From NCBI GenBank assembly GCA_964560135.1, contig CAZLKN010000004.1:26997-90996 (forward strand): a DNA stretch of 64,000 bases. Direction: 5' to 3'. Positions 19,487-35,777 of this stretch are shown here, piece after piece. Position 1 is the first letter of the stretch; each line of letters opens with the position of its first letter. The stretch is from an uncultured Actinomycetes bacterium. Lineage in GTDB: Bacteria; Actinomycetota; JAICYB01. Below the pieces are notes generated by a model. The model did not search any database, was not told the DNA's origin, and saw only the letters and a program-made list of their open reading frames with translations. Made by a program: the position numbers and the translations under genes.

Positions 19487-20722
19487 TCAGCCGTGGAGGA
19501 CGACGCGGTAGTAGGACTCGGCAGACTGCCGGGCCACCAGGACGGCTCCCCGCACGTCCGCGTCCTGGTCGAGCGCGGACCGGACGATCGACAGGCCCTC
19601 GACCGCCTGGGGAAGCGCGAGTTCGAGGATCGTTTCCCGTAACGGCCCGAGGAACGGCTCCCCCGCCCCCGCGAGTCCTCCACCCACCACGACCATCCGG
19701 GGGTTGAAGAGGTTCACGAGCCAGGAGGCCGCCACGCCGAGCTCACGTCCCGCCTGCGAGAGGATGTGGAGCGCCAGCTCATCGCCGCCGGCGGCGGCCG
19801 CAGCCACGTCCTCGGCCTGGATCCGTCCGCTGTGGGCCAACTCCGTGAGGACCGAGCCGTCCTTCCCCGCCTCCCGGATGGCCGCCCGGGCGATGGCGGG
19901 ACCCGAGGCCACGGTCTCCAGACAGCCCACCTTGCCGCAGTTGCACTGCTCTTCGGATCCGGGGACCCGGCAGTGGCCGATCTCCCCGGCGAAGCCGTCC
20001 CCGCCCCGGTAGATGCGACCGTGGGACACGATGCCGGCCCCGATCCCGGTGCCCGCGTAGAGGAAGATCAGATCCTCGACCTCCTGGGCGGCTCCCTCCA
20101 GGTTCTCGGCGACGGCAGCGGCCTGGGACACGTTGTGCACGTAGATCGGGACCTTCAGGAGCTTCTCGAGCGGCACGCTGATCGGTACGTCCCGCCAGCC
20201 GAGGTTCGGCGCCAGCCGGCAGATACCCGCATCGATGTCGACGAGACCGGGCACACACACCCCGACGGCCGCGAGTCGCTTCATCTTGGCCCCCGTGGCC
20301 GCCATCGCCTCCGTCACCAGGCCGGCAACCTTCTTCAGAGCCTCCCCTGGACGTCCGCGCGGCGTCGGCTTCTGGAGCCGGCCGACCTCCTCGCCGACCG
20401 CGTCGGACACGACGATCGTGGTCCTCCGCACGCCGAGATGGACTCCGACGAGAAACTGCGACCGCGCATTGAACTCCAACAGGATCGGCGGCCGGCCGCC
20501 GCCCTGGTTGGGCCGGCCGACACCGATCTCCCGGGCGAGCCCCTCCCCGATGAGCTCGTCGACGATGGCCGACACCGTGGGCTTGGCCAGCGTCGTCACC
20601 TTGGCGATCGATGCGCGTGAGATCGGACTCTGCTGCCGGAGAAGATCCAGGATGAGGGAGCGGTTCAACTCCCGCATCACGCTGTGATCGGCACCTGATG
20701 TCTTCGGTCGCTCTCTGGGCAT
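19487..20722 (-). CDS. ROK family transcriptional repressor (NagC/XylR-like)
   Basis: N-terminal HTH (NRSLIL...ISRASIA...PTVSAIV, GGRPP), GTGIGAG, AGEIGH, CNCGKVGCLE. Confidence 0.95.
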   Translation of the reverse strand: MPRERPKTSGADHSVMRELNRSLILDLLRQQSPISRASIAKVTTLAKPTVSAIVDELIGEGLAREIGVGRPNQGGGRPPILLEFNARSQFLVGVHLGVRRTTIVVSDAVGEEVGRLQKPTPRGRPGEALKKVAGLVTEAMAATGAKMKRLAAVGVCVPGLVDIDAGICRLAPNLGWRDVPISVPLEKLLKVPIYVHNVSQAAAVAENLEGAAQEVEDLIFLYAGTGIGAGIVSHGRIYRGGDGFAGEIGHCRVPGSEEQCNCGKVGCLETVASGPAIARAAIREAGKDGSVLTELAHSGRIQAEDVAAAAAGGDELALHILSQAGRELGVAASWLVNLFNPRMVVVGGGLAGAGEPFLGPLRETILELALPQAVEGLSIVRSALDQDADVRGAVLVARQSAESYYRVVLHG

Positions 20723-20826
20723 GGTCACCGCGCGATGCGGTTGCTCCTCCCTGGATCCGGCCGGAAATGGACCGGTCCGATCCGGAACCACTTTCCTCCC
20801 CGGCGATCTTCGTTCATCATCTTAAC

Positions 20827-21195
20827 GTGCAGAAGACGACGTACGGACGAACCATCGCGTTTTTCGTCGGCTCGGGCCGCCGGGCTGCCGCCGGGGCCGC
20901 CGTCCTCGCTCTGGCCGCCTCGGCGTGCTTCTTCAACCAACCCCGTGTGTTCACCGACGATCTCGTGCCCGTGCCCGACATGTCGGGGATGGAGGTCCGC
21001 GAGGCCCGCCAGGAGCTCGAAGCACTCGGGTTCATCGTCCAGGTGGTGCCGGAGGGTGCGACGCCGCCCCCGCCGGTACTCGAGACCGATCCCCCCGTAT
21101 TCTGCCCGGACGGCGTCGTCGTCGCGCAGGACCCGCCTCCGGACGAGGACGTGCTGCAGGCCTCGACGGTCGTGCTCGCCGCGCGCGACTGCTAG
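20827..21195 (+). CDS. Small PASTA-domain lipoprotein
   Basis: Lipobox-like AASAC; VPDMSGM...ARQELEALGF...GVVVAQDP PASTA pattern; start uncertain. Confidence 0.75.
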   Translation: MQKTTYGRTIAFFVGSGRRAAAGAAVLALAASACFFNQPRVFTDDLVPVPDMSGMEVREARQELEALGFIVQVVPEGATPPPPVLETDPPVFCPDGVVVAQDPPPDEDVLQASTVVLAARDC

Positions 21196-21590
21196 CGGGT
21201 CACCAGGACGAAGACCACAGCGAACAGGATCGCCATCCCCATCCTGACGTAGGAGCCGATCCCCAGCGCTCTCGCTTCGCCCCAGTCGGACCCGTACCGC
21301 TGGTAGGCGATGGCGATCTTCCGCAGGTACTCCTTCAGCGCGACGATCCCACCCACGCCCAGCGCCAGCGACGCGAACGTCAGGAGCGTGAAGTTCCACC
21401 GCCCGAACAGGGCGGTCACGACCACGAAGGTCACGAGGAATCGTGCGACCTCCCGGAGGAGCCAGCCGGTCGAACGGATGTCACGCTCGACCCACGGGAG
21501 CCAGGTCGGCGGGATCCGGATCTCCCAGAGGTAGTAGCGCATCTCCAGCGGCCTCGGTGGCGCCTGCAGCGCGTGTTCTTCTGCCTTCAC
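21192..21590 (-). CDS. Small hypothetical membrane protein (about 3 TM)
   Basis: Hydrophobic segments; last co-oriented gene of the minus-strand operon. Confidence 0.65.
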   Translation of the reverse strand: MKAEEHALQAPPRPLEMRYYLWEIRIPPTWLPWVERDIRSTGWLLREVARFLVTFVVVTALFGRWNFTLLTFASLALGVGGIVALKEYLRKIAIAYQRYGSDWGEARALGIGSYVRMGMAILFAVVFVLVTR

Positions 21591-21619
21591 GTCCCCACGA
21601 TACCGCGAAGTGGGGGCTC

Positions 21620-23329
21620 CTATCTGAGGAAGAGCTCCCGCGGGACCACCATCCCGGTGGCCACGCTCGACACGCTGTCCACCGCGGAGCCCACGGTGGT
21701 GGAGTTCACGAGGTACAGACGGGCCCCGTAGGCGATCGGGATCAGCGGCATCTCACCGCAGACCATGTTCTCGAGCACCTGGTACATCTCGATCTGGTCC
21801 TCTTCGGCGATCGCCCTCCGTGCTTCCTTCTCGAGGATGCGATCGAAGTCCCGGTCGGAGAAGCGGGTGAAGTTGTTCTGTCCGATGCTGCCCGAGTCGA
21901 ACAGCGGGACGATGTAGCGGCTGGGAGCCGGGTACTGCGGTGCCCACGACATGCGGAATGGTCCCTCGAACCCGGGCTGCTGCAGGCCCGCGTCCAGATA
22001 GCTGTCCCATCCCAGCGGGACCGCTTCGACCTCCACCCCGAGGGCCTCGTTCCACTGCTGTGAGATCTCCTCGACCAGTTCCGCGTGGCCGAATTCGTCG
22101 TTGAAGGTCAGGCTGATGGTCTGGCCTTCGAGGTCCACACCCGCTCCCTGCAGACTCTGCCGTGCGGCTGCGACGTCCGCTGTGAGCGGTGTGTGTTCCG
22201 CGCAGGCGTTGTCGCGGTGAAAGGACCCCAACGCCGGCGGCAGGACGCCCTGCGCCGGTTGCCGGACACCACCGTAGACGGATTCGACGATACGGGTCCG
22301 GTCGAGAGCCTGGCTGAGCGCGATCCTGACCCCCCGCTGGTCGAAGGGCTCCTGGCTCACGGGGAGCCCGATGTACTCGAGGGTCGGAGTGGGGGCGGCC
22401 ACGAGGTCGTCCCCCAGCCGTCGCAGCTCCTCGAGCCGCTCCTGGGGGGCATGCGCGACGTCGATCTCTCCGGCCTCGAAGGCCGCCACCTGGGCGTCAC
22501 GGTCCTCGTAGAACCTGAACTCGATCTCATCCGGGTAACCCACGCCACCCTCGGTATGGGCCATGTTCGCCCCATAGTAGTCCTCGAAACGCTCCACGCG
22601 GATCGAGGCGTCGCCGGGCGTCCACGGCTCGGTCATCTGGTAAGGACCCGTACAGATCGGCTGGCGCGAGAATGCGTCGGGATCGTCCTCGATCTCCTGC
22701 TTGGGGACCGGGGCGGAGGCCGGGTGCGAGAGGACCCGGAAGAAGTCGGAGAGATCCTGCGTGAGCCGGATCTCGAAGCTGAACGGCTCGATCACCCGCA
22801 TCCCAGCGAACTGGCGACGCTGGCGCTCGTCGTCCACCTCGGCCGTGCCGTGCACCTGGTCGTAGCCGATCACCGGCTGGAAGATGGAGGCGACGGGGCT
22901 CGCGAAGTCGCGGTCGGCCACCCTCGAGAGCGCGAAGACGACGTCCTCGGCCACCACCTCGCGACCGTTGTGGAACCGGACACCCTTCTTGAGACGGATG
23001 TTGATGCGTTCGCCCCCGTCGCCGATCTGCCAGGAGTCGGCGATCCCCGGACGGACCTCCCCGGTCACCGGGTCGATGGTGACCAGCGTGTCGCAGATCG
23101 TCGACGTGAGGAGGCTCTGTGCGGGTTCGAGCGCGTCCGTGGCCGGAGGGTCGATCGTCAACGGCTCGTTGATCCCGATACGCAGCGTCCCGCCCGGGGC
23201 CGCCTCGGGACTCGCCTCGCGGAACTCGAGCACCTCGTCGCCTGCGCACGCCGCAGCGACGACCGAGAGCAGCCCGGCCGCAGCGATCGCGCGGCGGAAC
23301 CGGCCGTGGTTCTTCCGGCCCTCAGGCAC
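21620..23329 (-). CDS. ABC substrate-binding lipoprotein, family 5 (OppA/DppA-like)
   Basis: Lipobox VVAAAC, TIDP, PGIADSW, LKKGVRFHNG, TGPY, VRIALSQALDR; GTG 23329 overlaps the upstream stop. Confidence 0.92.
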   Translation of the reverse strand: MPEGRKNHGRFRRAIAAAGLLSVVAAACAGDEVLEFREASPEAAPGGTLRIGINEPLTIDPPATDALEPAQSLLTSTICDTLVTIDPVTGEVRPGIADSWQIGDGGERINIRLKKGVRFHNGREVVAEDVVFALSRVADRDFASPVASIFQPVIGYDQVHGTAEVDDERQRRQFAGMRVIEPFSFEIRLTQDLSDFFRVLSHPASAPVPKQEIEDDPDAFSRQPICTGPYQMTEPWTPGDASIRVERFEDYYGANMAHTEGGVGYPDEIEFRFYEDRDAQVAAFEAGEIDVAHAPQERLEELRRLGDDLVAAPTPTLEYIGLPVSQEPFDQRGVRIALSQALDRTRIVESVYGGVRQPAQGVLPPALGSFHRDNACAEHTPLTADVAAARQSLQGAGVDLEGQTISLTFNDEFGHAELVEEISQQWNEALGVEVEAVPLGWDSYLDAGLQQPGFEGPFRMSWAPQYPAPSRYIVPLFDSGSIGQNNFTRFSDRDFDRILEKEARRAIAEEDQIEMYQVLENMVCGEMPLIPIAYGARLYLVNSTTVGSAVDSVSSVATGMVVPRELFLR

Positions 23330-24407
23330 CGGGAAGCCCCGGCTCCGTGTTGATGATCGATTCACGCTGCGTCTCCACCTCCGCTCCGTCCACGACCCCC
23401 TCCGCCAGGCGCGTCTCCTTCACGGAAAGGCCCCCGAACTGCGTCGCGAACGCGTGGCTCTCCTCGAAGGAGATGTCGTTGGTGGGCGACACCAACCGGC
23501 CGTTGAAGATCTGGATGTTCCAGGCATCGATGAACACGCCGCAGGCGTCCACCCGGACCTTGTGGTTCTCCACCGTCGGCTCGTCGTCGCCGTCTTCCTC
23601 GCCGAGAGGATCGTCGGGGATGGGTCCCGTGTCCTCCTCTGTGGACTCTCCGATCATGGCGTCGAAGCTGAGCACCGTCTGACCGTTGCTCGCCGTCGAG
23701 GCCACGGACCACTCGGCCCCCGACTCGGCGGGGAAGGGCATCATCTTGACCGGCGGGTTCCAGTTGAACGCGGAGGTGTCGTCACCCTCGGTGACCTCGG
23801 TGCGGGTGAGGTAGATGCCCTGCAGGTCGGCGACATCGTGATTGGGGATCACCGAGTAGCTCGTGGTCGTGGTGCGGGAATCCATCTGCTCCACCACCTC
23901 GAAGCTGTACACGCCGTCGTCGTCCGGCGGCTCAACGTTCTGGACCGTCCGGGTGACCTCCTCCGGGAAGAGTTCGACATCGTCACCGCTCGACGTATGT
24001 CCGCTGGTCCGGAACGCGTAGCTCTCCTCTACCGGCGGCTGCGACGCGCGGTTCGAGGCCACCTCCCGAGGTGCACTGAGCGGATCGGCCGAGGGGCAGT
24101 CGTGGATCACCGGAGGCGGAGGGGGAGGCGGCGGCGGTTGCACGGGCTGCTGGACCCGCCGCACCACCCGGACCACGGGGTTGGGCTCGGTCACCAGCGC
24201 TCCGGGATCTTCGAAGTCCGACGACTGGATCCCGAGCAGCACATCACTCGGGAACTCTTTGACCCCCACGGCCACGGGGGTCCGGGGGCCGGCACATGCG
24301 CTCCCGAGCAGGAGCATCGTGAGTAGCAGCGTGAGCCCGACGGTCGGACGACGCCGCCTGGTATTCCTCGATCGATTCGACCGTCGATGCTCCCTGCTCT
24401 TCTTCAT
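23322..24407 (-). CDS. Uncharacterised lipoprotein with poly-Pro linker
   Basis: Basic N-region, lipobox LLGSAC, run of 8 Pro, acidic beta-rich C-domain. Confidence 0.75.
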   Translation of the reverse strand: MKKSREHRRSNRSRNTRRRRPTVGLTLLLTMLLLGSACAGPRTPVAVGVKEFPSDVLLGIQSSDFEDPGALVTEPNPVVRVVRRVQQPVQPPPPPPPPPVIHDCPSADPLSAPREVASNRASQPPVEESYAFRTSGHTSSGDDVELFPEEVTRTVQNVEPPDDDGVYSFEVVEQMDSRTTTTSYSVIPNHDVADLQGIYLTRTEVTEGDDTSAFNWNPPVKMMPFPAESGAEWSVASTASNGQTVLSFDAMIGESTEEDTGPIPDDPLGEEDGDDEPTVENHKVRVDACGVFIDAWNIQIFNGRLVSPTNDISFEESHAFATQFGGLSVKETRLAEGVVDGAEVETQRESIINTEPGLPGA

Positions 24408-24429
24408 CTCACCCTCCATTGTACGGCTG

Positions 24430-27408
24430 TTATTCGGGCGCGCCCCTTCGCGGATCGGTTGCCCCGGCGATGGGGCCACGCAGCTCCTCCCCCCGTTGGA
24501 ACGCCAGGAGTGAAGCGAAGATACGGTCGGCGTCCTCGAATCCCTGTCTCGCGATGAAGATCTCGTAGTACTCCATGCGCGGCGGGAACCAGAGGAAGAT
24601 CCGCTGCTCTGGGAGGCGTTGCACGTGGATGCGCTCGTTGCCGATCCGGGTCAGCTCGAAGGTACCCGTGCCGATGCTGCCCAGCACACCTTCGCGCAGC
24701 TCCTTCTGGGTGGCCTCCAGGCCGGGCTTGAACGCACCGACCTGAAGCGCCCCGAGGACCCCCTCGTCGTCGCGGACGGTGTACACCTGGCCGACGGCGA
24801 CGAGGCTCTCCTCACCGGCGAGCTCGAAGGCGCGCTCGGCCCCCGGCTCCCGCTGGAAGCGCAGTCCCTCGAACTCGCTGGGGGCGACCTCCTCGGGCAT
24901 CACCGGCTCGACGAGCTGCGCGGTTGGCTGACGGTCCTCGGCGCTGAGCCGTCCACAGGCCCCGCTGGTGAGCAGCAGGAGCACGATCATCCCGCCGACG
25001 GGGAGCGCGCGGCGGGCCCGGCGGAACCTCCCCAGCGGCGACAGCCGCCGGAGGCCACGGAGCCGCTCCCGCAGGGTCGTGCGCGGCCACAGGTTCGGGA
25101 TCTCCCGCGTATAGGGGTCCCGCAGCGAGACCCGCGACCCGAAGGCGATCACCCGGGTGATCGAGGGCTGTGCACGGCGCAGCCGGCGGGACACCGATCG
25201 GGCCATGTCCTCGGCGACCTCGGCGTCCTCGGGATGCAGGTCCCGCCTGAGGTCGCCCCAGAAGGCACGGGTGACCAGCCAGGCCAGCTCAGCATGCTCC
25301 AGATCCGGATCGACCGCCTGCAGGAACTCGAGTGGGGTCGCCGAGTTGTACCCGACGTTCAGATCCGATGCGGCGTCGCGGAAATCGCCGTAGGCGACCA
25401 TGATCCGCTCGAAGGCGCCCTGGTCCGCCGCCCAGCGACGGCGACGGAACCGGCGTGCCACCTTCACGACGCCCGGATACAGGGAGTACACGAACAACAG
25501 GCCGGCCAGGAACGGAAGCGTGACGGCCAGCCAGTAGCGGACGATGACGAACAGGAGCTGGATGCTCTGGAGGCGGATCGGGACGTAGATGACGAGGGCC
25601 AGGTCCTCGGTGGGCCTGATCTCGGGATCCTGCTCCTCGTCGTCCTGGGACAGGCTGGCCTGCGCCCGCGGAGGTGTCCCCACGATCGGCACCCAGCCGT
25701 AGCCGTGGAAGTAGGCCTCCAGCCACGTCGAGCCGTGGCGGGGACGCACCTCCCAGGTCTGAGCCTCGGGATCCTCCTTGTTGCCGGCGAAGAACCCGTA
25801 TCCGATCCGTGAGGGGATGCCCGCCCACCGGGCGAGCATGGCTTCGGCGGCGGTGATCTCGTAGGGCGTCGCGGGCTCTTCGTCCAGCATCTCCGCGACA
25901 CGCGCCGGCGGCACGTCGACCGGGTTCCCGGCCCCCTTGGCGATCACCTTCTCGTAGAAGGTGTTGCGGACGAACTGGAGTCGCTCGAACATGTTGTCTT
26001 CCGGCGCCTCGTTGAGGATCGCCACGACCTCGCTCGGCGGCGGCGGCATGCCCTCGAGGAACAGCTCCCGGATCTCCTGCGGAGGCGGCGGCGCCTCCGC
26101 CAGCTCCTCGCCCGATGGCGGCATCGGCGCCTCGACGGTGTAGGTCATGCCCCGCCTGGCGCGGGAGTCGGGCAACCGGAACATCTGCGTACGAGGATCG
26201 AAGGTGAGCTCGAAGTCGCTCTCGCGCTGCACCCGTTTGGCGTCGGCGATGATGGGGAGCACGTGCCCTTCGACGTCGAAGATCTCGAAGGTGGCCACGA
26301 ACGTGCCGTCGTCCTCGCGCTCGACCGGCTGCTCCGGTTCGCCGATCGACGGCGGGATCACGCCCGTCGGCTCGATGTCGATGAGGCGTGCGGTGGTGTA
26401 CGGCGGCAGGAGCCAGGCCACCTCCTCGTAGACGTCGAGTACCCCCAGCCGCCACGGGCCGGGGCGGTCCGCCTCGACGGTGAAAATGACCCGGTCCTCC
26501 TGGGGAGGCTGCACCTCCGGCCGCTTCGGTGGGATCTCCTGGTCGCGGTCGGTCTCCGGGAACAGGAACCCGGCCTGGCTGAGCGCGAACAGCACCACCA
26601 GCAGGAGGCCAACCATCCCGATGCCCTTGCCGAGACGGCGCATCTCGAACTGTCCGGAGGTGGCACCCTCGCGGGCCAGCTCGACCCCGTACGCCACGGC
26701 CATGGAGCCGACCAGCAGGGCCAGGGCCACACCCGTGGTGAGCATCGTGCCTTCCTGCGGCTGGATCAGCGCCGCAGCGAAAACCAGCGGCACCGGCATG
26801 AAGATGCCGAGCTTCGGACGGTCGAGGCTGGTGGCCAGCGATGCCGCGGCGGTGGCCAGGACGGCGGTGAGGACGACGAGGATGAACCTCCAGCCCGGAT
26901 CGAAGGGGATCGGCGGCTGGGCCACGCCTCCGGTCCGGATCGCCTCGGCGACGAGACCGGGAAGGTTGGCCGTTCCCCCCGTGGCATCCGGGATGATCAG
27001 GATCGCGCCCACCAGCAGGGCCGCCGGCAGCGCCAGGTACTGCACGATGCTGGGTCTGCGGGTGCGATAGGAGAAGGCGACCATGCCGGCCCCCAGCAGG
27101 GGGCCGATGAGGGCAACGGCCTTCGGGAAGAGGCCGCGGAACAGCCCCGCACACATCCAGGCGGCGGCGGTGGCGGAGAGGAACACCGCCAGCGAGGTGA
27201 GCAACGGGTCGGCGGGCTGATGCTCGGGTCCTTCCTGGGCTTCCCGGCGCTCGGCCTCCGTCAGCTCCTCGTCTTCGAGGATGCGTGGCTCCTCCTCCGT
27301 CTCCGTTGGAGTGACGGGGAGTTCGGTGGTGCGATCGGGGGCTTCGATACTCACCGAGATCGTGTCCTTGCCGTCATCGTCGTCATCTCTCCGTCCATCG
27401 AACTCCAC
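24430..27408 (-). CDS. Multi-TM transglutaminase-like (TgpA/DUF3488-type) protein, catalytic triad absent
   Basis: N-terminal TM bundle; AMLARWAGIPSRIGYGF and WLEAYFHGYGWVP match the TGase-like core; follows MoxR-DUF58. Confidence 0.85.
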   Translation of the reverse strand: MEFDGRRDDDDDGKDTISVSIEAPDRTTELPVTPTETEEEPRILEDEELTEAERREAQEGPEHQPADPLLTSLAVFLSATAAAWMCAGLFRGLFPKAVALIGPLLGAGMVAFSYRTRRPSIVQYLALPAALLVGAILIIPDATGGTANLPGLVAEAIRTGGVAQPPIPFDPGWRFILVVLTAVLATAAASLATSLDRPKLGIFMPVPLVFAAALIQPQEGTMLTTGVALALLVGSMAVAYGVELAREGATSGQFEMRRLGKGIGMVGLLLVVLFALSQAGFLFPETDRDQEIPPKRPEVQPPQEDRVIFTVEADRPGPWRLGVLDVYEEVAWLLPPYTTARLIDIEPTGVIPPSIGEPEQPVEREDDGTFVATFEIFDVEGHVLPIIADAKRVQRESDFELTFDPRTQMFRLPDSRARRGMTYTVEAPMPPSGEELAEAPPPPQEIRELFLEGMPPPPSEVVAILNEAPEDNMFERLQFVRNTFYEKVIAKGAGNPVDVPPARVAEMLDEEPATPYEITAAEAMLARWAGIPSRIGYGFFAGNKEDPEAQTWEVRPRHGSTWLEAYFHGYGWVPIVGTPPRAQASLSQDDEEQDPEIRPTEDLALVIYVPIRLQSIQLLFVIVRYWLAVTLPFLAGLLFVYSLYPGVVKVARRFRRRRWAADQGAFERIMVAYGDFRDAASDLNVGYNSATPLEFLQAVDPDLEHAELAWLVTRAFWGDLRRDLHPEDAEVAEDMARSVSRRLRRAQPSITRVIAFGSRVSLRDPYTREIPNLWPRTTLRERLRGLRRLSPLGRFRRARRALPVGGMIVLLLLTSGACGRLSAEDRQPTAQLVEPVMPEEVAPSEFEGLRFQREPGAERAFELAGEESLVAVGQVYTVRDDEGVLGALQVGAFKPGLEATQKELREGVLGSIGTGTFELTRIGNERIHVQRLPEQRIFLWFPPRMEYYEIFIARQGFEDADRIFASLLAFQRGEELRGPIAGATDPRRGAPE

Positions 27409-27435
27409 TGCTCACGGAATGGTTCCTTGGTGTGG

Positions 27436-28740
27436 TCAGAACTTGCGGATCGCACCGACGAGCACCTTCCGGAAGACACCCTCGAGCGCCTGGCTCGCGG
27501 AAACCTCGACGACGTTGCATCCCAGCACACCGGCGCGATGCAGGCTGGCCGGATCGGAATCGTCGTGGACCACCATCACCAGCAGGATCGAGACCCCCCG
27601 GTCGATGAGGAGCCTGAGGCGGGTCGCCGCCGCCTGATCGAGGTGCGGTGTGGCGACGACGATGTGGGTGTCCCGGCGGGGGTCGGTGAGGACACGGTTC
27701 AGCAGCTCCTCCAGCGACTTCTTGCCGCGTTCGACCCGTGCCAGTTCGTCGAGCAGGCGGATCCGGTTCCGCAAACCACGGAGCTGCTCGGCGATCTTCC
27801 GTTCGTTGGTGTCCACGGACACCGCGAAACCGTCCTTGATGTGCTTCGCCCCGAGCGATGCCACGACCCGCACGGCGGTCTCGAAGGTCTCGCTGGGCTC
27901 ACCCGGGGAATGCTCGGACCCGTCGGTATCGAGGATCATCCCCACCCGGTCGGTGATCCCCTGCTCGGACTCCCGCACCAGGAGGCGATCGTTGGCGGGG
28001 TCGTCCGGGTCGAGCGTCCGGGCCGTGGCCCGCCACACGATGCGACGGGGGTCGTCCCCGGGCACGTACTCGCGCATCCCGTAGAACTCGAAGCCTGCCG
28101 GCCAGGGCTTGGAGACGGGCGGACGGATCGGCGGATCCTCCCATTCCCGGCTGAGGACCCGGTCCTGCACGGGCTCGGTGCTCGGGTGCACGATGATCTG
28201 TTCCGGCTCGATCAGCCGCTGGGTCTGGCGGGTGAGCCCGAAGGGGTCGCTCCACGCCGCGATCAGCGGCCCCACGCTGTACACACCGCGGAGGCGCGGC
28301 GTGAAGCTGTAGAGGTGCGACACTTCCTGCCCCGAGGGCAGGATCGGGATCGGAACCCGCACGTCGTTGCCGAGATGGTTGTGCAGCTCCTCCTCCAGCA
28401 CGATGGTGCTGAGACGCCGCTTCGCGGTGAGGGTCAGCTCCACGTCAACGAGCTGCCCCTGCCGCACGCGGGTGGGGAGTTCCGAGCGGACGGCTGCCAC
28501 GGACAGCTTCCGCCGCCCCATCACCCAGGAGATCACGAGCACCACGATGAGGCCGTACACGAGGAGGAACATCGCCCGGCTCCCGAGCAGCCGCGCGAGG
28601 ATCCAGCCGGCGATGGCGAACACGATCACCAGCAGCCCGCTGGGGGTGAGGCCCAGCTTCCGCTCGATGAACGCGAGGATGCCGGATCCGAGGACGGCTG
28701 CCCCGGATCGCTTCTGTCCCTTGGCCCGTGGTGGGCTCAT
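27436..28740 (-). CDS. DUF58 domain membrane protein
   Basis: Two N-terminal TMs, RGVY...GP...SDPFGL, EFYGMREYVPGDDPRRIVWRATAR. Confidence 0.93.
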   Translation of the reverse strand: MSPPRAKGQKRSGAAVLGSGILAFIERKLGLTPSGLLVIVFAIAGWILARLLGSRAMFLLVYGLIVVLVISWVMGRRKLSVAAVRSELPTRVRQGQLVDVELTLTAKRRLSTIVLEEELHNHLGNDVRVPIPILPSGQEVSHLYSFTPRLRGVYSVGPLIAAWSDPFGLTRQTQRLIEPEQIIVHPSTEPVQDRVLSREWEDPPIRPPVSKPWPAGFEFYGMREYVPGDDPRRIVWRATARTLDPDDPANDRLLVRESEQGITDRVGMILDTDGSEHSPGEPSETFETAVRVVASLGAKHIKDGFAVSVDTNERKIAEQLRGLRNRIRLLDELARVERGKKSLEELLNRVLTDPRRDTHIVVATPHLDQAAATRLRLLIDRGVSILLVMVVHDDSDPASLHRAGVLGCNVVEVSASQALEGVFRKVLVGAIRKF

Positions 28741-28759
28741 GCTCTCCCTGCTCCCTGCA

Positions 28760-29794
28760 TCAGGCGCTCGCGGCCTGCGCGGTCTTCCCAGAGCCCATCG
28801 GCACCTTCACCCGCGTGACGATGCGGTCCACGACGGCCTCCACGGTCTCGTCGCGCAGCATCGCGTCGGGCGTCAGGATCAACCGGTGAGCGAGGACCGG
28901 CATCGCGAGGCTCTTGACGTCGTCGGGAAGCACGTCCTCGCGGCCCTGCGAGGCGGCCAGGACCCGCGATGCCCGCTGGAGTGCCAGCGCGGCACGGGTA
29001 CTGCCCCCGATCAACAGCCCCGGGTCGGTTCGCGTCGCCTGCACGAGATCGACGATGTAGAGCTTCACGGCCTCGGAGACCGTGACGTCGGCGGCCCAAT
29101 CGACCATGGCCACGACCTCGTCGCGGGAGACCGCCGAGCCGATGTCCTCGATGGCCTCGGTCTTGCGGTTCGCGTCCAGCACCTCGACCTCTGCCAGCCG
29201 GTCCAGGTAGCCGAGGGACAGCTTGAACAGGAACCGGTCGAGCTGGGCCTCCGGCAGTGGGAACGTACCTGCGAGCTCCACCGGGTTCTGGGTGGCGAGC
29301 ACGAAGAACGGCTTCGGGAGCGGGTGGGTGATGCCGTCGATCGTGACGTTGCGCTCCTGCATGGCCTCCAGCAGCGCCGCCTGCGTCTTCGGAGTGGCAC
29401 GGTTGATCTCGTCGGACAGGAACACGCTGGCGAAGATCGGGCCGGGCCGGAACACGAACTCGCCGGTCTTCCGGTCGAGGACGGGCGATCCGGTGACGTC
29501 ACCGGGCAGGAGGTCCGGGGTGCACTGGATCCGCGAGTACTCGGCGTCGATCGTCTTGGAGATCGCCCGGCAGAGCATCGTCTTACCGGTGCCGGGGAGG
29601 TCCTCGAACAACAGATGCCCGTTGGCGAACAGGCACGTCATCGCCAGCCGGACGATCTCGTCCTTGCCCTTGATGACCTGCTCGATGTTGTCCACGATCA
29701 ACTCGAAGCGGTCCCGGAACGCCTGACGGCTCAGACCCGCCTGGGCCTTCCCCTTCTTCGGTGACTTACGGGTACTCACAGCCACACCGATCAC
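28760..29794 (-). CDS. moxR: MoxR family AAA+ ATPase
   Basis: EDLPGTGKT, RIQCTPDLLPGDVTG, DEINRATPKTQAALLEAM, ATQNPVE, LPEAQLDRF; start may be GTG 29785. Confidence 0.96.
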   Translation of the reverse strand: MIGVAVSTRKSPKKGKAQAGLSRQAFRDRFELIVDNIEQVIKGKDEIVRLAMTCLFANGHLLFEDLPGTGKTMLCRAISKTIDAEYSRIQCTPDLLPGDVTGSPVLDRKTGEFVFRPGPIFASVFLSDEINRATPKTQAALLEAMQERNVTIDGITHPLPKPFFVLATQNPVELAGTFPLPEAQLDRFLFKLSLGYLDRLAEVEVLDANRKTEAIEDIGSAVSRDEVVAMVDWAADVTVSEAVKLYIVDLVQATRTDPGLLIGGSTRAALALQRASRVLAASQGREDVLPDDVKSLAMPVLAHRLILTPDAMLRDETVEAVVDRIVTRVKVPMGSGKTAQAASA

Positions 29795-29795
29795 C

Positions 29796-32700
29796 TCACC
29801 TCGTCTTCTTACGGTCGTTGGTCGACCTGGTCGTGTTCTTCTTCTTCTTCTTCTTCGCCTTCGCCGCCGGCTCGTCGTCCTCGTCGTCGTTGCCGGAAGT
29901 CGCGGGGGCCTCGACGCCGAGCATCGCCGCCAGACCCTTCCCGCCCGACCGTGAGACCACGGACTCCGACGCCGCCATGTAGGACTGCATGACCCGCGGG
30001 TCGTTCACGACCTCCCGCGGCGGACCCGTGGTCACCACCGCGCCGAGCTCCATGGCGATCATCCGGTGGGAGATGGAGGTGATCAGCGGCATATCGTGCT
30101 CGATGACCAGCAGCCCGGCCCCCGTCTCCTTGGCCAGCCGGACGAGCACCGGACCGAGCTCCTCGGTCTCCGCCTGGGCCAGACCGGAGGACGGCTCGTC
30201 CAGCAGCAGGATCCTGGGCTGGGCGGCCATGACACATGCGATGTCCACCGCACGACGGCTTCCGGTGGACAGCTCGTTGACGAACTTGTCGGCGTAGGCC
30301 TGGAGGCCGAGCAACTCGATCAATCCGTCGGCGCGCCGGTAGGCGCGGCGCTCGGCCTGGCGGAGCTTCGGCGCCCACACCGCGGCCATGAGGGGATTCT
30401 TGGCTTTCAGATGGCGCTCGAGGGCCACCACGATGTTCTCCCGGACCGTCATCGACGGGAACAGCCGGGTGTTCTGGAAGGACCGGCCGAGGCCGAGACG
30501 CGCCCGGGCGTCGGGTGAGAGCGTGGTGACGTCGGTGGCCTCGAGGAGGACCGAGCCGGTGTCGGGCGTGACGAACCCGGAGATCGCGTCGAACAGCGTG
30601 GTCTTCCCGGCCCCGTTGGGACCGATGATCCCCACGATCTCGGCGGCGCCGACGTCGAGACCCACGTCCCTGAGGGCGTGCACCCCGCCGAAGCTCACGC
30701 TCACGCCCTCCACGGTGAGGAGCCGCTCACGCTCTTCGCTGGCCTGCTGGTGAGCGCCGGATGTCCGGACGGGCCCTCCACTGGCGGTGCCGGAGACCGC
30801 GCCGCCCATGAACACCGCACGCACGAGCTCCGGGCGCCGCATGAGCTCCTCGGTGGAGCCGTCGAAGCGGATCTCACCCTTCTCCATGAACACCGCCCGC
30901 TCGGCGATGGTCACGGCCACGTTCAGCGACTGTTCGACGAGCAGGACCGTGGTGCCCTGCTCGTGGATCTGACGGAGGGTGTCCAGGAGCTGCTCCACGA
31001 TCTGCGGGGCGAGTCCGAGGGAGAGCTCGTCGATCATCAGCAGGCGCGGGCGCATCAGGAACGCCTGACCGAGCGCGACCATCTGCTGCTCACCACCGGA
31101 CAGGTTCCCCGCCGGCTGATGCAGCCGCTCGCGCAGGATCGGGAAGAAGTCGAGGACCTGTTCAGTCCTCTCCTTCACGTAGGACTCTTCGCTGCGGTAC
31201 ATCCAGGCCGCCGTGCGCAGGTTCTCCTCGACGGTGAGCGTGGGGAACACGGCGTGGCCACCGGGCACCATGACGATGCCGTTGGCGGCGTTCTCGTGCG
31301 GCGGCACATGGGTGATGTCGTGGCCGTCGAGGAAGATCGCGCCGTTGGAGGCCTCCTGGATACCGGCGATCGCACGCAGGAGGGTCGACTTCCCGGCACC
31401 GTTGGTTCCCATCACGGCGACGATCTCGCCTTCCTCCACGTCGAAGTCCACGCTGAAGAGCACCTGGACGCTGTCGTAGGTGACGTCCACGTCGCGGCAG
31501 ATGATCATCTTGCGCCGGCCCCGGGCCTTGGCCCGGCGGGCCTCCTCGTCGGCCATGCTGGCCGCCCGGGCCGCCCGGATGTCCCGATCGACGCCGAACG
31601 ACGAGGTGCTGAGGATGAACGCCCCGATCAGGTACACGGGGATGAACATCAGCATCCCGCGGCGAAGCCCCCAGTTGTCGACCATCGGCGCGATGAACAT
31701 GATGTTGAACAGCAGCCCGATGATCTGCCAGGGCGCGATGGTCTGGAGACCGAGCCCCCGGATCCGGGGCGGGACCACCAGGGAGATCAGCGTGGCCAGG
31801 GCGGGCTGGAAGGCGGTGCCGATGAAGCCGATCGGCAGGCTCACGATGATCGAGAGCCAGAGGTTGCCGGAGAACGCGAGCACGGCCACCGTGCCGGCGT
31901 TGAGCACGAGCAGCCCGCCGAGGAACGCCATCACGCGACCGGGCTTGAAGGCGAGGAGCCGGTCGGCCAGCGGGCCGGCGAACAGGAGTCCGGTGATGGA
32001 GAAGAGCCCGGACCCGGTGGCGATGTAGCCACGTGCCCGGGGGCCGAGCCCGAACTCCTCGGCAAAGTACAACCCGACGAACAACCCGATCACCGTCCCG
32101 GAGATCTGGAGGAACGGGGTCGCGTACCACAGGCGCCGCAGGGTGGTGATCGACTTCGCGGCGCGCCAGGCCTCCGCCCAGCTCACGGGCTTCTGCTCGG
32201 TGGTGGCGACCTCCTCGTCGGCCCCCATCTCCTTGCGCTCCTGGTAGCCGCGGACCGGTTCCTTGAGGAAGAAGAGCGCGAAGGTCACGGCTGTCGCGAT
32301 GGCACCGAGGGCGATGACCGACACCCGCCAGGTGAACCACTCGGCGAGGTTCCCGGCGATCGTCGGGCCCAGCAGCGCACCCACACCGCCCATCAGGCCG
32401 AGGAATGCGAACACGCGGGCGCGGCTGCGCGACGGGAAGTAGTCGGCCAGCAGCGGGAAGCCCGCCGGTCCCGCCACAGACGCTCCGACGCCGGCCAGGG
32501 TGCGACCAGCCACGAGCTGGGGAACGCTGCCGGCCGCCCCCTGCAGGACCGAGGCGGCGTTGGCGACCAGGTTCCCGATCCGCAGCATCCACACGCGGGA
32601 CACCCGGTCGGCCATGAATCCCAGCGGCGGGGCGAGCAGGATCATCACGATGCCGAGGAGCGATCCCAGCGTGATGAGGAACTGGAGGCTGAAGGCGAAC

Positions 32701-33107
32701 TCGGCGCGCATCTCGGGCAGGAGGACGTCCAGGGCGATGTTGTCCCACTGGGTGATCATCCCCATGAGCCCGAGCAGGATCAGCGGCATCTTGGGCCCGC
32801 CGATCTTCCGGGGGTCGAGGTCGGCGATGAGGCCGGCGATGGTTTCCTTCAGCGGCTTCCGCGGCGCGTCGCCCTCGATCGGCGTGAACTCGTAGTCCTC
32901 GGCCCGGACGCCGAGCTCCTGCTCCCGTTCCGACGGCACCAGGTTGCGAGGCCGCACCGAGGCCGCCAGCTCCTGGTCGACACCCCCGGTCACCGCGGTG
33001 TCGGCTTCGGCCAGGGCGTCGGCCTCCACGTGTCGGGGAAGCGGCTCCGATCCGAGACCGCCGGTCTCCTCGACCGGGCGAGTCAGGTCTTCTTTCCCTT
33101 TAGACAC
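29796..33107 (-). CDS. Fusion protein: MFS transporter + LivF-type ATPase + LivG-type ATPase
   Basis: MFS motif-A-like GFMADRVSR and GPLADRL, about 12 TMs; NBD1 GTNGAGKST/LSGGEQQ/LLMIDE/VEQ; NBD2 GPNGAGKTT/LSTGSRR/LLLDEP/IEHD. Confidence 0.9.
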   Translation of the reverse strand: MSKGKEDLTRPVEETGGLGSEPLPRHVEADALAEADTAVTGGVDQELAASVRPRNLVPSEREQELGVRAEDYEFTPIEGDAPRKPLKETIAGLIADLDPRKIGGPKMPLILLGLMGMITQWDNIALDVLLPEMRAEFAFSLQFLITLGSLLGIVMILLAPPLGFMADRVSRVWMLRIGNLVANAASVLQGAAGSVPQLVAGRTLAGVGASVAGPAGFPLLADYFPSRSRARVFAFLGLMGGVGALLGPTIAGNLAEWFTWRVSVIALGAIATAVTFALFFLKEPVRGYQERKEMGADEEVATTEQKPVSWAEAWRAAKSITTLRRLWYATPFLQISGTVIGLFVGLYFAEEFGLGPRARGYIATGSGLFSITGLLFAGPLADRLLAFKPGRVMAFLGGLLVLNAGTVAVLAFSGNLWLSIIVSLPIGFIGTAFQPALATLISLVVPPRIRGLGLQTIAPWQIIGLLFNIMFIAPMVDNWGLRRGMLMFIPVYLIGAFILSTSSFGVDRDIRAARAASMADEEARRAKARGRRKMIICRDVDVTYDSVQVLFSVDFDVEEGEIVAVMGTNGAGKSTLLRAIAGIQEASNGAIFLDGHDITHVPPHENAANGIVMVPGGHAVFPTLTVEENLRTAAWMYRSEESYVKERTEQVLDFFPILRERLHQPAGNLSGGEQQMVALGQAFLMRPRLLMIDELSLGLAPQIVEQLLDTLRQIHEQGTTVLLVEQSLNVAVTIAERAVFMEKGEIRFDGSTEELMRRPELVRAVFMGGAVSGTASGGPVRTSGAHQQASEERERLLTVEGVSVSFGGVHALRDVGLDVGAAEIVGIIGPNGAGKTTLFDAISGFVTPDTGSVLLEATDVTTLSPDARARLGLGRSFQNTRLFPSMTVRENIVVALERHLKAKNPLMAAVWAPKLRQAERRAYRRADGLIELLGLQAYADKFVNELSTGSRRAVDIACVMAAQPRILLLDEPSSGLAQAETEELGPVLVRLAKETGAGLLVIEHDMPLITSISHRMIAMELGAVVTTGPPREVVNDPRVMQSYMAASESVVSRSGGKGLAAMLGVEAPATSGNDDEDDEPAAKAKKKKKKNTTRSTNDRKKTR

Positions 33108-35430
33108 TCTCGGTCTCCGTGCTCGACGATGGCCCGAAGGTCCGCTGCTCTTCCTGTTCTGCTTCGGCTTCCTTGCGTTCCTCGGTGCCGTCGCGGTGGA
33201 GGTTCGCGTGGAGGACGGTCTCTCCGGTCAGGCCCAGCGCCCACTGGTCCTCGAGCCGGTACCTGCTGGGGACGAACACCGCTCCTCCACCGGGACGCAT
33301 CTTCGGAGCGATCGCGGCACGCTCGGACAGCAGCACCTCGGCCTTCTGGTCGGCCACGAGGCTCGGTACGAGGATCCGGTACCGCTTGGCCACGCGGCGG
33401 AGCAGCGAGTCGCGGAGTCCGAAGACGAGCGACGACAGGCCGCCGGGGATGAGCATCAGCACGATCAGACCGCCTCCACCGCTGGCGATGAAGATGACGA
33501 TCGGGTTCGAGGTGAACAGCGTCAGCGCGGCGAAATAGGTGGTCCCGAGCAGCGGTCCGGCGACGGCGCCGAACCCACCGATCACCGCGATCAGGAACAT
33601 CGTCACGCTCTGTTCCGGCGGGTAGGCGGTGGCCTGGACGCCGAACTGCGAGTACGCGAAGAGCGCACCAGCGAGGGCCGCGACGAACCCCGAGATCGCG
33701 AAGGCTCCGAGCCGGGCCCGGACGAGGTTGATCCCGAAGGATTGGGCGGCCTGTTCGTTGTCACGCGACGCGATCAGTGCACGGGCGGTGCGGCTGCGGC
33801 GCAGGCCGACGATGGCCGCCACGACCGCCACGAGGAAGAACATCGTGAAGTAGTAGAAGACCCGCTGGTCCTCCATCTCCATGCCGAGGAGCGTCGGTCG
33901 CTCGAGGCTGTCGGGCAGGTGCTTGCCGAGGAACCGGGGGTTGAGAAGGATCGCGGAGGTACTCAGCGCGAAGGCGAGCGTCATGATCGCCAGATGCAAG
34001 CCCCGGAGCTTGAGGGCGGGGAGACCGATCAGCACCGCCACAACGGCCCCCGCCAGCGCCGCGGCCACGATGGCCAAGGGCCAGGGCCAGCCCAGGTATG
34101 CGGCGACGTAGCCGCCGACGGCGGCGAAGGCGAACTGTCCGAGGCTGATCTGACCGGCCCATCCCGTGAGCACGAGCAGGGACAAACCGATCATCCCGTA
34201 GATCATGTACACGGCCATGAGGTTGGTCTGGCTCGGAGACAGCACCCACGGCAGCCCGAGCGCGACGACCACCAGGACCGCCCAGCCGTTGCGGACCCAT
34301 CGTTTGACCACAGCCAGGTGGGCCAGTTCCTTAGGGATCGGCCGGATCTCACGATCCGCCTTCCACGCGCTCGCCTGCTCGATCTCCGCCCGGGAGGCCT
34401 GGTAACGCTGCAGCAGAAGCACGGTGGCGAGGATCAGCAGGAAGACCCCGTCGAGGGCGACCGTGGACCCGAACGACCACAGCACCGACTGCTCGAGGAC
34501 CCCGAAGACCACCGCCGCCGCCGCGGTCATGGGCAGGCTCACCATCCGGGCGATCACAGCCACGGCCAGGATCTTGACCATCGTGCTCACGTTCAGCGAC
34601 GACTCGCCCTGGGCCCCCACCGACATCGCCGTCAGCAGGCCCGCGGTCGCCGACAGCGCACCCGCGGCGATCCACACGCGGCTCGTGACCTTGTCGACGT
34701 TCACCCCGAGGGTGGCGACCCGGCTCGGGTTCTCGGCAGCGGCCCGGATCGCGATGCCGGTGCTCGACCGCCGGAAGTAGAGCATCAGACCGCCGATGAA
34801 CAGCAGCCCGATGAGGACCGTGAGGATGTCGGGGGTGTGGAAGGTCGCGGGAGAGATCTCGACCTGCCAGTCGAATGGGGCCCCCACCGCTCCGAGCTGG
34901 AGGCCGGCCTCCTGCTGCTCCTCGGTCGTGAGCTGGTTGGGGATCATGCCCTGGAAGCCGCCGAGGAGCTGCGCCAGGAAGATCGTGGCCACGGTGAGGA
35001 CCAGGCGTGGAGCGTTGGAGAACCGCTTCACCACGAAGACGTAGATCGCGTACGCGAGGACGAGCGCGAGGACGAAGGACAGGATGAGGGAGAAGTAGTA
35101 GTTGAACCGGTACAGCCCCGGCGTGACCCGCTCGATGCACGGCGGGCAGACCGCCCTCACCAGCCGGAACAGCGGCATGTACTGGACCATCACCACGAAG
35201 AAGGTCGCGGCGACGACACCGATCTGCACTTGGGCGAAGTTGATGATCCGGTTCGCGCGGTAGACGAGGACCACACCGATCGCGTGGAGGGCGATCGTCG
35301 CGCCTCCCACGACCCCGAGTGCCCTGATCCCCGGTGGAACGCCGCCCTCGAAGAACTGGATGCTCAGCAGGATGACGACGAGCGCCAGGACGTCGTTGCG
35401 CTCCCGGAGGATCCTCAGCGCCTGGACCAT
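33100..35430 (-). CDS. Fused LivH-LivM (HAAT/branched-chain amino acid-type) ABC permease
   Basis: IGVVLVYRANRIINFAQ, GIAIRAAAEN...TLGVN (LivH half); LTGWAGQISLGQ, LRGLHLAIMTLAF, RDNEQAAQSFGIN (LivM half). Confidence 0.93.
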   Translation of the reverse strand: MVQALRILRERNDVLALVVILLSIQFFEGGVPPGIRALGVVGGATIALHAIGVVLVYRANRIINFAQVQIGVVAATFFVVMVQYMPLFRLVRAVCPPCIERVTPGLYRFNYYFSLILSFVLALVLAYAIYVFVVKRFSNAPRLVLTVATIFLAQLLGGFQGMIPNQLTTEEQQEAGLQLGAVGAPFDWQVEISPATFHTPDILTVLIGLLFIGGLMLYFRRSSTGIAIRAAAENPSRVATLGVNVDKVTSRVWIAAGALSATAGLLTAMSVGAQGESSLNVSTMVKILAVAVIARMVSLPMTAAAAVVFGVLEQSVLWSFGSTVALDGVFLLILATVLLLQRYQASRAEIEQASAWKADREIRPIPKELAHLAVVKRWVRNGWAVLVVVALGLPWVLSPSQTNLMAVYMIYGMIGLSLLVLTGWAGQISLGQFAFAAVGGYVAAYLGWPWPLAIVAAALAGAVVAVLIGLPALKLRGLHLAIMTLAFALSTSAILLNPRFLGKHLPDSLERPTLLGMEMEDQRVFYYFTMFFLVAVVAAIVGLRRSRTARALIASRDNEQAAQSFGINLVRARLGAFAISGFVAALAGALFAYSQFGVQATAYPPEQSVTMFLIAVIGGFGAVAGPLLGTTYFAALTLFTSNPIVIFIASGGGGLIVLMLIPGGLSSLVFGLRDSLLRRVAKRYRILVPSLVADQKAEVLLSERAAIAPKMRPGGGAVFVPSRYRLEDQWALGLTGETVLHANLHRDGTEERKEAEAEQEEQRTFGPSSSTETESV

Positions 35431-35599
35431 CGGTCCCTAACCCCGTCCGACCCCATCTTCACAGCTCCCGACCCTCTCGACCATTGAATCCTGGACGATC
35501 CGATCCGATCCCATGTGGCACGCGCCCTTCGAGGCCGGCCACCTCTCCCCTCGCCGGGACCGCCCGCCCTCTCGACGCCCGTCGAGACGACCTGCCGAC

Positions 35600-35720
35600 C
35601 CCGATTACATGTCCACTAATGATAGAAGATGATATAGGCTCCCGCGGCGGTTGGCGAGTCCGACCTTCCGCCCACCGCAGCGGCCCCGCTCCGATTTAGT
35701 TCATATACCATCCCAATCCC
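35600..35720 (-). promoter_or_regulatory. AT-rich probable promoter region of the livHM-MFS/ABC-moxR operon
   Basis: AT-rich patches (ACTAATGATAGAAGATGATATAG; TTTAGTTCATATACC) in a 347-bp intergenic gap. Confidence 0.4.
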
Positions 35721-35777
35721 GTTCCGCGAGGCGCGCGCGCGGCCCTCGAGCCTAGCCACACGGCATATACGGGCGCC

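Follow-up and report, generated by a model that had tools for sequence, protein, structure and literature searches.

The described systems closest to the locus treated here are the LIV-I or HAAT importers (LivHMGF with LivJ/LivK, and UrtBCDE), which are ATP-binding cassette (ABC) transporters, and TgpA of Pseudomonas aeruginosa (structures 6g49/6g4h) together with the MoxR-DUF58-transglutaminase trios. The locus is a cluster of eight genes in a stretch of 64,000 nucleotides, called the window from here on, from the draft genome of an uncultured Actinomycetes bacterium (assembly GCA_964560135.1, contig CAZLKN010000004.1), and it places a LIV-type ABC transporter next to a MoxR module. With the LIV-I/HAAT importers it shares two BPD_transp_2 domains and a LivF/UrtE- and a LivG/UrtD-like ATPase, motifs intact, and a partner protein of its family, c3, is homologous to Peripla_BP_6. 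Here, however, the two permeases form a single protein, the ATPases are joined to each other behind an N-terminal major facilitator superfamily (MFS) domain, the LivK-type partners are proteins of about 620 amino acids (aa), membrane-anchored and invisible to Pfam, with a family-5 protein in their slot in the window, and a MoxR module is built into the cluster. With TgpA and the trios it has in common a polytopic N-terminal membrane domain followed by a TgpA-fold ectodomain, encoded after MoxR and DUF58, whereas the catalytic triad is replaced, an extra C-terminal transmembrane (TM) helix and a PsbP-like domain are present, and an ABC transporter is adjacent. The P. aeruginosa tgpA locus itself may also carry MoxR and DUF58; a literature search found no paper joining TgpA and MoxR.

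Three further groups of systems offer partial likenesses. The bifidobacterial PFNA cluster (pkb2-fn3-aaa-atp-duf58-tgm) and the mycobacterial moxR1 operon, in the passages of two papers that describe them (PMC8430577, PMC12067865), likewise encode, alongside a secreted or surface protein, a MoxR ATPase, a DUF58 protein and a transglutaminase-like membrane protein; unlike the PFNA cluster, the eight proteins described here include no Ser/Thr kinase or FN3 domain (Pfam E <= 0.01), the ABC transporter, the binding protein and the beta-barrel lipoprotein come in addition, and the transglutaminase fold is inactive. The Opp/Dpp (PepT-family) importers share with the locus its last conserved gene, which encodes an OppA/GsiB/DppA-like SBP_bac_5 lipoprotein, but BPD_transp_1, OppC_N and oligo_HPY are lacking in the cluster, and OppC_N and oligo_HPY were not found in the whole genome. 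Finally, mycobacterial carriers of the LmcA, LpqN and LppX/LprG types are likewise outer-face lipoproteins with a beta-barrel or PsbP-like fold; the resemblance is at fold level only, with middling scores and no sequence similarity, and the proteins described here are encoded with an ABC transporter and MoxR rather than with MmpL-type transporters. None of the LIV/Urt importers, TgpA, the PFNA cluster and the moxR1 operon combines these parts. Literature searches found no publication on this cluster and no paper on an MFS-fused LivG/HAAT ATPase (the passages of PMC3924187 that came up were unrelated), and for MoxR, DUF58 and transglutaminase together they found the PFNA and mycobacterial papers only.

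We read the locus, with confidence that stands about midway, as one conserved, co-inherited envelope system of two halves, in which an uptake machine is organised by a dead TgpA-like protein and lipoproteins and controlled by MoxR and DUF58. The first half would be a binding-protein-dependent LIV (HAAT)-type ABC transporter, with LivH and LivM fused and the LivF/LivG-like ATPases behind a DHA-like MFS domain; the second would be a membrane module comprising MoxR, the DUF58 protein as a membrane-anchored adaptor, the dead TgpA-like protein and the beta-barrel and PsbP/LpqN-type lipoprotein modules, and the gene of a family-5 binding lipoprotein would end the operon. What the analysis shows directly is which genes are present, their homology and folds, the missing triad and a linkage that is conserved in several gene orders. 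The window corresponds to C4:26997-90996 of the draft genome (G000; 3.56 Mb, 152 contigs, 94.7% complete), and its relevant features, in the order of transcription, are the following:

35629..35657, minus strand: sigma-70-like promoter match, about 200 bp 5' of the LivH-LivM gene, the sole match in 20500-36500
33100..35430, minus strand: LivH-LivM-type permease fusion (LivHM), 776 aa; Pfam BPD_transp_2 (PF02653) in two stretches, E 2e-53
29796..33107, minus strand: MFS-LivF-LivG fusion (MFS-ABC), 1103 aa; MFS_1 at residues 113-452, E 1.4e-42; two ABC_tran domains, E 6e-62; weak BCA_ABC_TP_C (LivG-type C-terminal motif) in the second of them
28760..29794, minus strand: MoxR AAA+ ATPase, 344 aa; AAA_3 E 7.9e-61 and AAA_lid_2 E 6.3e-21
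27436..28740, minus strand: DUF58 protein, 434 aa; Pfam DUF58 E 6.6e-8
24430..27408, minus strand: TgpA-like polytopic membrane protein, catalytically dead, with a C-terminal lipoprotein-like domain, 992 aa; Transglut_core E 8.9e-9
25627..26526, minus strand: ectodomain of the TgpA-like protein, residues 295-594; fold of the TgpA periplasmic domain (Foldseek, VIA-align)
24484..24906, minus strand: PsbP/Mog1-like C-terminal domain (C-domain) of the TgpA-like protein, residues 835-975 (VIA-align), preceded by an internal lipobox LTSGAC
23322..24479, minus strand: lipoprotein with Pro-rich linker and closed beta-barrel (barrel lipoprotein), 385 aa; no Pfam or NCBIfam family
21620..23365, minus strand: family-5 solute-binding lipoprotein, 581 aa; SBP_bac_5 (PF00496) E 4e-65
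21192..21590, minus strand: small membrane protein, 132 aa; DUF5313 at 23.1 bits, under the Pfam cut-off of 27.4

The eight open reading frames (ORFs) follow one another head to tail on the minus strand, spanning 35430 to 21192, as the sequence-only reading had described them, and Pfam agrees with the products it had named. They are tightly packed: taking the longest ORFs, and from the first gene onward, there is an overlap of 8 bp, gaps of 1, 19 and 27 bp, overlaps of 50 and 44 bp and a gap of 29 bp. The genome has a guanine plus cytosine (GC) content of about 69%, and the GC content at third codon positions lies between 0.85 and 0.93 for all eight, as real genes would show.

The evidence that carries the reading is the conservation of the linkage. 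A search of 41 related genomes with the TgpA-like protein, followed by mapping of the loci with the window's proteins, showed that close homologues of the TgpA-like protein share contigs with MFS-ABC genes in two gene orders, A and B, and transporters of a third arrangement lack the MoxR module:

Type A (the window): (c3), LivHM, MFS-ABC, MoxR, DUF58, TgpA-like protein with C-domain, barrel lipoprotein, then a family-5 protein or c3
Type B: MoxR, DUF58, TgpA-like protein without C-domain, barrel lipoprotein, LivHM, MFS-ABC, then the small lipoproteins c8, c11, c12 and c13
Type C: LivHM, MFS-ABC, c3; MoxR module absent

A profile scan for the TgpA-like protein, limited to one genome per species, yielded 80 loci (L073-L152), all in metagenome-assembled genomes (MAGs), whose NCBI labels, which can be wrong for MAGs, are Actinomycetota in 71 cases, Dormibacterota in six, and Acidobacteriota, Chloroflexota and Pseudomonadota in one each. 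The transporter is present in 68 of the 80 (41 of type A and 27 of type B), and in 11 of the 12 loci without it no more than about 1.8 kb separates the TgpA-like gene from a contig end. The flanks of the cluster served as an internal control: a DUF5313-like gene was found in 0/80 loci (E <= 1e-3), the exporter pair upstream of the cluster in 2/80 and the ROK gene downstream in 2/80. The arrangement is thus more than a chance neighbourhood, given that 68 of the 80 loci repeat it. By the same count the small DUF5313-like protein, which the sequence-only reading had included in the system, drops out of it, while the lipoproteins hold their place as conserved members and the two halves, proposed there to form one machine, do stay together in other genomes and in permuted orders. 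On these figures two further candidate parts of the cluster, the ABC exporter pair (35778-39331) on the upstream side and the ROK regulator on the downstream side, were ruled out.

The linkage persists in two or three gene orders, at protein identities of 33-60%, and in MAGs labelled as several actinobacterial classes and as Dormibacterota. Within the loci the LivHM gene invariably adjoins the MFS-ABC gene, the DUF58 gene always lies between those for MoxR and the TgpA-like protein, and the barrel-lipoprotein gene follows directly 3' of the TgpA-like gene in both orders. The window's genome itself carries a second copy of the cluster, of type B, on contig C14, with two family-5 genes nearby. 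In a FastTree phylogeny of 84 MFS-ABC proteins with midpoint rooting, types A and B form separate, well-supported clades and type C a third, while two rows with the type A order minus the C-domain are sister to the type C clade. Since the clades follow gene order, the association between transporter and MoxR module is old and was kept through rearrangements. In reading these counts it should be borne in mind that the tblastn mapping used thresholds of 55-60 bits or more, so that divergent small lipoproteins are undercounted, and that seven region pairs are present twice, with identical rows in the 84-protein tree (L036=L113, L038=L119, L039=L120, L054=L077, L057=L081, L059=L135, L061=L129). 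Among unpublished genomes, G004 contributes one row (L046) of the barrel-lipoprotein alignment A4 and rows of the locus map, G267 one of 35 MFS-ABC matches, and G010 and G026 weak or non-matching rows only; no conclusion hangs on any of the four.

The TgpA-like protein was modelled with AlphaFold2 from an alignment of 36 homologues (mean predicted local distance difference test, pLDDT, 81.3). The model places in order a TM bundle (68-277), the ectodomain (295-594), a TM helix from 616, a cytoplasmic helical domain (643-763), a TM helix (792-820) and an alpha/beta C-domain (835-975). The ectodomain matches TgpA 6g49 in Foldseek with E 3.2e-8 and a TM-score on the target of 0.62, and TgpA 6g4h in VIA-align with Z 18.5 and a root-mean-square deviation (rmsd) of 4.1 over 251 aligned residues; moreover, TgpA (6g49) is the sole significant sequence match of the protein in the PDB. 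A profile alignment to 6g49 pairs the catalytic residues of TgpA, Cys, His and Asp, with Pro515, Ser560 and Ile575 of the window protein, and in the 36 homologues, which represent both gene orders, the three columns hold P in 36/36, A/S/T in 36/36 and I/V/L in 36/36, with no conserved Cys anywhere in the ectodomain. The loss of the triad, which the sequence-only reading had noticed in the one protein, is therefore a property of the whole set, and the transglutaminase fold is inactive. Within the phylum there are also more distant TgpA-like genes, one of which comes from the window's own family; they belong to MoxR-DUF58-TgpA trios in which pairwise alignments show the Cys kept in 3/5 and the His in 5/5; LivHM/MFS-ABC genes lie beside none of these five. 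The linkage to the transporter is specific to the triad-less subfamily of TgpA.

The moxR gene starts 1 bp past the stop codon of MFS-ABC and is followed by the DUF58 gene 19 bp downstream; its product is classed as MoxR, in an MRP-type context, from its AAA_3 and AAA_lid_2 domains and the adjacent DUF58 gene. A metal-insertion role for MoxR, of the kind known for NorQ/CoxD, was considered on account of a Cupredoxin_1 match in one c8 protein, which is below threshold (24 bits vs a cut-off of 27), and was dropped, there being no evidence of a metal site. The DUF58 protein has an N-terminal hairpin of two hydrophobic segments (35-53 and 56-74). DUF58 would be vWA-like according to PMC12067865, and the passages of that paper state that there is as yet no clarifying evidence on the role of the protein. 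On contig C16 of the same genome (L051 = G000:C16, locus positions 1567-3609, plus strand) lies the gene for a protein of 680 aa that has VWA_2 as its C-terminal domain, about 1.2 kb 5' of the c3 gene of a MoxR-less transporter.

In the transporter half, the LivH-LivM fusion has about 19 hydrophobic segments by hydropathy and matches both LivM/UrtC and LivH/UrtB in NCBIfam, always under the cut-off. The MFS-ABC protein reaches 336 bits for UrtE (cut-off 285.8) and 307.7 for UrtD (304.1), with LivG at 327.5 and LivF at 268 under their cut-offs, and from these matches its first ATPase domain is UrtE/LivF-like and its second LivG/UrtD-like. The MFS part scores 146.3 bits with MFS_1 (PF07690; cut-off 33.4), and its nearest solved structures are EfpA (E 8.7e-8) and NorA, of the drug/H+ antiporter (DHA-like) type. 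Its motif A, the conformational-switch motif, is kept in the 84 homologues (D167 in 83/84, R168 in 81/84, R171 in 83/84), and the Walker A, Walker B and signature motifs of both ATPases are present in the window protein and kept in 82-84 of 84, so that the MFS domain and both ATPases look functional. MFS-ABC paralogues are numerous in the window's bacterial family, which is the sole family of its class in the collection and is represented by 10 species genomes; four such transporters occur in the window's genome, on contigs C4, C14, C16 and C82. Furthermore, 35 of 401 sampled genomes of the phylum match MFS-ABC at E <= 1e-120, by our reading with 30 of the matches beginning inside the MFS part. 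Together, MFS-LivF-LivG and LivH-LivM constitute a separate transporter family.

The question of the binding protein has two answers, depending on the level considered. In the window's operon the absence of a LivK-type protein, pointed out from the sequence, stands: no Peripla_BP_6 gene was found by Pfam among the eight. For the transporter family it does not, because many MFS-ABC transporters are adjoined by c3, a protein of about 620 aa with a single N-terminal membrane anchor and no Pfam or NCBIfam match, for which searches among solved structures gave just an insignificant hint of a HAAT binding protein (E 0.18). Compared by hhalign with five ordinary Peripla_BP_6 proteins of the same genome, a c3 profile of 11 proteins gave a probability of 97.4% and E 1.4e-11 over 322 columns, and by virtue of this profile-profile match c3 is a very divergent LivK-type binding protein. 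It is present in 24/41 type A and 19/27 type B loci. In the 3.6 Mb genome it occurs at no fewer than 20 places, all of them outside the window, four in tandem beside the C14 cluster and four on C4, which suggests that many c3 binding proteins share few transporters, namely the four MFS-ABC proteins. Copies were seen at C14:26518-34653 and C4:98969-119793, on C15, C18 and C19, and on other contigs of the genome.

The slot is occupied in the window by the family-5 protein, which is OppA/GsiB/DppA-like with scores under every NCBIfam cut-off and has orthologues in the same slot in 18/41 type A loci. Three of the four SBP_bac_5 genes of the window's genome lie beside the two MoxR-linked clusters. 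The cluster holds no BPD_transp_1 permease, OppC_N domain or oligo_HPY ATPase by Pfam; genome-wide, the 94.7% complete draft has no match to oligo_HPY or OppC_N (PF08352 and PF12911) and 13 to BPD_transp_1, none of which is on contigs C4, C14 or C41. As a control, all three markers were detected in the same 11 of 14 genomes. The relatives G001 (100% complete), G005 and G100 likewise have family-5 genes and no oligo_HPY, while G313 and G293 have Opp/Dpp-type loci elsewhere in the genome. Within the limits of a draft, the family-5 protein therefore appears to have no Opp/Dpp-type partner detectable in the genome, and it may feed the LIV-type permease or serve extracytoplasmic assembly; we know of no precedent for a family-5 binding protein paired with a LIV-type transporter.

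The two lipoprotein modules were compared at the level of fold. A PsbP/Mog1-like fold is suggested by the model of the C-domain, which VIA-align places near TP0453 (Z 8.0), TM1622 (7.8), Mtc28 (7.0), LpqN (6.9) and the PknH ectodomain (6.8), with DcrB within the range Z 5.7-8.0. The C-domain is homologous to c11, a separate lipoprotein of about 165 aa encoded behind the transporter in type B; among the called proteins, 42 carry it as part of the TgpA-like protein, and in a few loci it is a separate gene right after the TgpA-like or the barrel-lipoprotein gene. A domain that switches partners in this way would link the two halves, as in the gene-fusion argument. The Cys of the internal lipobox LTSGAC (residues about 800-820; window 24950-25010) is kept in 18 of 28 fused homologues, and the fused protein may be internally cleaved and lipidated, or the lipobox may be a relic of a recent gene fusion.

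The barrel lipoprotein, in its turn, is modelled with a pLDDT of about 97 over residues 150-376 as a closed beta-barrel. Its VIA-align matches are YmcC-like structures (4fvs, Z 11.2; 2in5, Z 8.9), outer-membrane barrels of 12 strands, LmcA (7n3v, Z 7.9) and LolA (about 7), and Foldseek gives LmcA a probability of 0.97; against the sequences of solved structures nothing was significant (best E 0.41). LmcA is itself an elongated beta-barrel with cavities and possible lipid binding, according to PMC8972800. The barrel lipoprotein, the C-domain, c3, c8, c11, c12, c13, c10 and c14 belong to no Pfam or NCBIfam family. The closest paralogue of the barrel lipoprotein in the genome, of 377 aa, lies among c3 genes (L053 = G000:C15:20001-36000) with no TgpA-like, MoxR or MFS-ABC gene near it. 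Behind the small lipoprotein genes of several type B loci (L035, L037, L039) there is an acyl-CoA dehydrogenase gene, c6 (Acyl-CoA_dh_1/M/N), which may hint at fatty-acid-like substrates or be an unrelated neighbour.

With regard to transcription, a pattern scan of 20500-36500 found seven terminator-like matches, none of them in an intergenic gap, and a single promoter-like match, 5' of the first gene, so that the internal promoter or terminator which would have separated the halves was not encountered. The position of the promoter match fits a single transcription unit, although one match was seen against 0.9 expected in shuffled sequence, which is weak alone, and such calls are pattern matches and no proof of function. 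A run search found no RNA sequencing run holding the locus. Four DNA runs of soil metagenomes, from one study, hold the stretch, three of them being possible sources of the assembly; contigs of three soil runs, which for that reason are not independent of it, have even depth across the region and bridge the MFS-ABC/MoxR junction. At window positions 29044-29577 and 30112-31713 (the MoxR AAA core and the ATP-binding domains), the summed depth of metagenome contigs rises two- to four-fold and contigs break, which is expected because conserved motifs of paralogues or of other organisms collapse in assembly graphs.

Around the cluster, two adjoining ABC exporter half-transporters (ABC_membrane plus ABC_tran; 35778-39331, minus strand) lie upstream at a distance of 348 bp. 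At the other end, a convergent 165 aa ORF with a PASTA domain (20698-21195, plus strand) shares 4 bp with the end of the DUF5313-like gene, and a gene for a ROK regulator is found downstream of the cluster.

On our preferred reading of one system in two halves, the following course of events may be envisaged, in which we infer physical contact, the direction of transport, the substrate and the role of MoxR. On the outer face of the membrane, a platform would be built from the two lipoprotein modules together with the dead TgpA ectodomain. Together with the binding protein, this platform would capture a bulky, peptide-like or hydrophobic ligand derived from the envelope and pass it to LivHM for ATP-driven uptake. 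On the cytoplasmic face, MoxR and DUF58 would spend ATP to assemble, activate or gate the complex through the TgpA-like protein. The MFS domain could offer a second, proton-coupled path, for instance for export of a product or counter-substrate, or could tune the ATPases; a hybrid primary/secondary transport mechanism, as raised in the sequence-only reading, is a conjecture. The strongest form of the proposal, an ABC supercomplex class made up of a LIV importer with MFS-fused ATPases, a family-5 binding protein, a dead TgpA scaffold and lipid-carrier-like lipoproteins, with assembly or gating driven by MoxR/DUF58, is put forward only tentatively, since we think it somewhat unlikely.

Several points weigh against a single system. 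MFS-ABC/LivHM pairs occur without any MoxR module in 9/19 mapped loci, as well as on contigs C16 and C82 of the window's genome. Since transporter and MoxR-DUF58-TgpA trios each occur separately, each half can presumably function alone. One locus, L080 (JAIVGO010000029.1, 8958-15332), has the TgpA-like, barrel-lipoprotein and family-5 genes with a 5'-truncated DUF58 gene and a full 10 kb of upstream flank in which no MoxR, LivHM or MFS-ABC gene is found; it is the only evaluable exception, and it looks like a rearranged or decaying copy. In addition, all related loci come from MAGs and are not independent samples, co-transcription would follow from gene spacing only, the absence of Opp/Dpp systems is read from a 94.7% complete draft with short domain models, and the fold matches of the lipoprotein modules are middling (Z 7-11), so that the ligand is not certain from them.

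These points lead to the explanation that a nutrient importer and an envelope-maintenance module of MoxR, DUF58 and TgpA-like protein are two independent systems, which share an operon or neighbourhood for co-regulation without touching each other. The transporter with c3 and without MoxR in 9/19 loci and on C16 of the window's genome, and the 5/5 distant trios without a transporter, are what such an arrangement would produce. Seven genes at 33-45% identity are, however, rarely held together by co-regulation alone, and the linkage recurs in 68/80 loci, with 11 of the 12 others at contig ends, in at least two permuted orders despite decay of the flanks. Moreover, the PsbP-like domain occurs either as part of the TgpA-like protein or in a gene behind the transporter, and it is with the triad-less TgpA subfamily only that the transporter is linked; we accordingly consider independence of the halves unlikely. 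In another direction, the whole could be a lipid, lipoglycan or lipoprotein route, in which the ABC/MFS protein extracts or flips a hydrophobic envelope component, the lipoproteins carry it outward, and MoxR, DUF58 and the dead TgpA assemble the route. The folds speak for it, given the likeness of the barrel lipoprotein to LmcA (Foldseek 0.97; Z 7.9) and LolA (Z about 7) and of the C-domain to LpqN, Mtc28, TP0453 and DcrB (Z 5.7-8.0), as do the nearness of the MFS part to EfpA and other exporters and the acyl-CoA dehydrogenase gene behind some type B clusters. But these scores lie in a range where only a common arrangement may be shared, two families of binding proteins (SBP_bac_5 and c3) are conserved in or beside the clusters and point to uptake, and BPD_transp_2 permeases with LivF/LivG ATPases are, to our knowledge, known solely as importers, which makes an outward route quite improbable.

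It could also be argued that metagenome assembly or binning produced the adjacency artificially, or that it is a coincidence of one genome, given that the genome is a soil-metagenome draft in 152 contigs and that Logan contigs break inside the conserved ATPase motifs. Contigs of three runs, though possibly of the source samples, nevertheless span the MFS-ABC/MoxR junction, and the same arrangement is found in dozens of assemblies made by other projects, among them contigs 0.8-4.1 Mb long and the record of a complete chromosome, so that an artefact can be dismissed with near certainty.

The locus is of interest in several respects. Of the widespread MoxR-DUF58-transglutaminase trios, an entire subfamily is here tied to one defined membrane machine, a tie that makes the target of MoxR directly testable; if the supercomplex were real, the trio would have a defined client for the first time. 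Three features are unusual in transport biology: an MFS domain joined to ABC ATPases, the motifs of both being intact, LivK-type proteins that Pfam misses at 20 or more places in a genome of 3.6 Mb, and a family-5 protein without a partner of the Opp/Dpp type. Finally, uncultured soil Actinomycetota commonly have the system, MAGs labelled Dormibacterota have it as well, and it may matter for the feeding or the envelope building of abundant soil bacteria.

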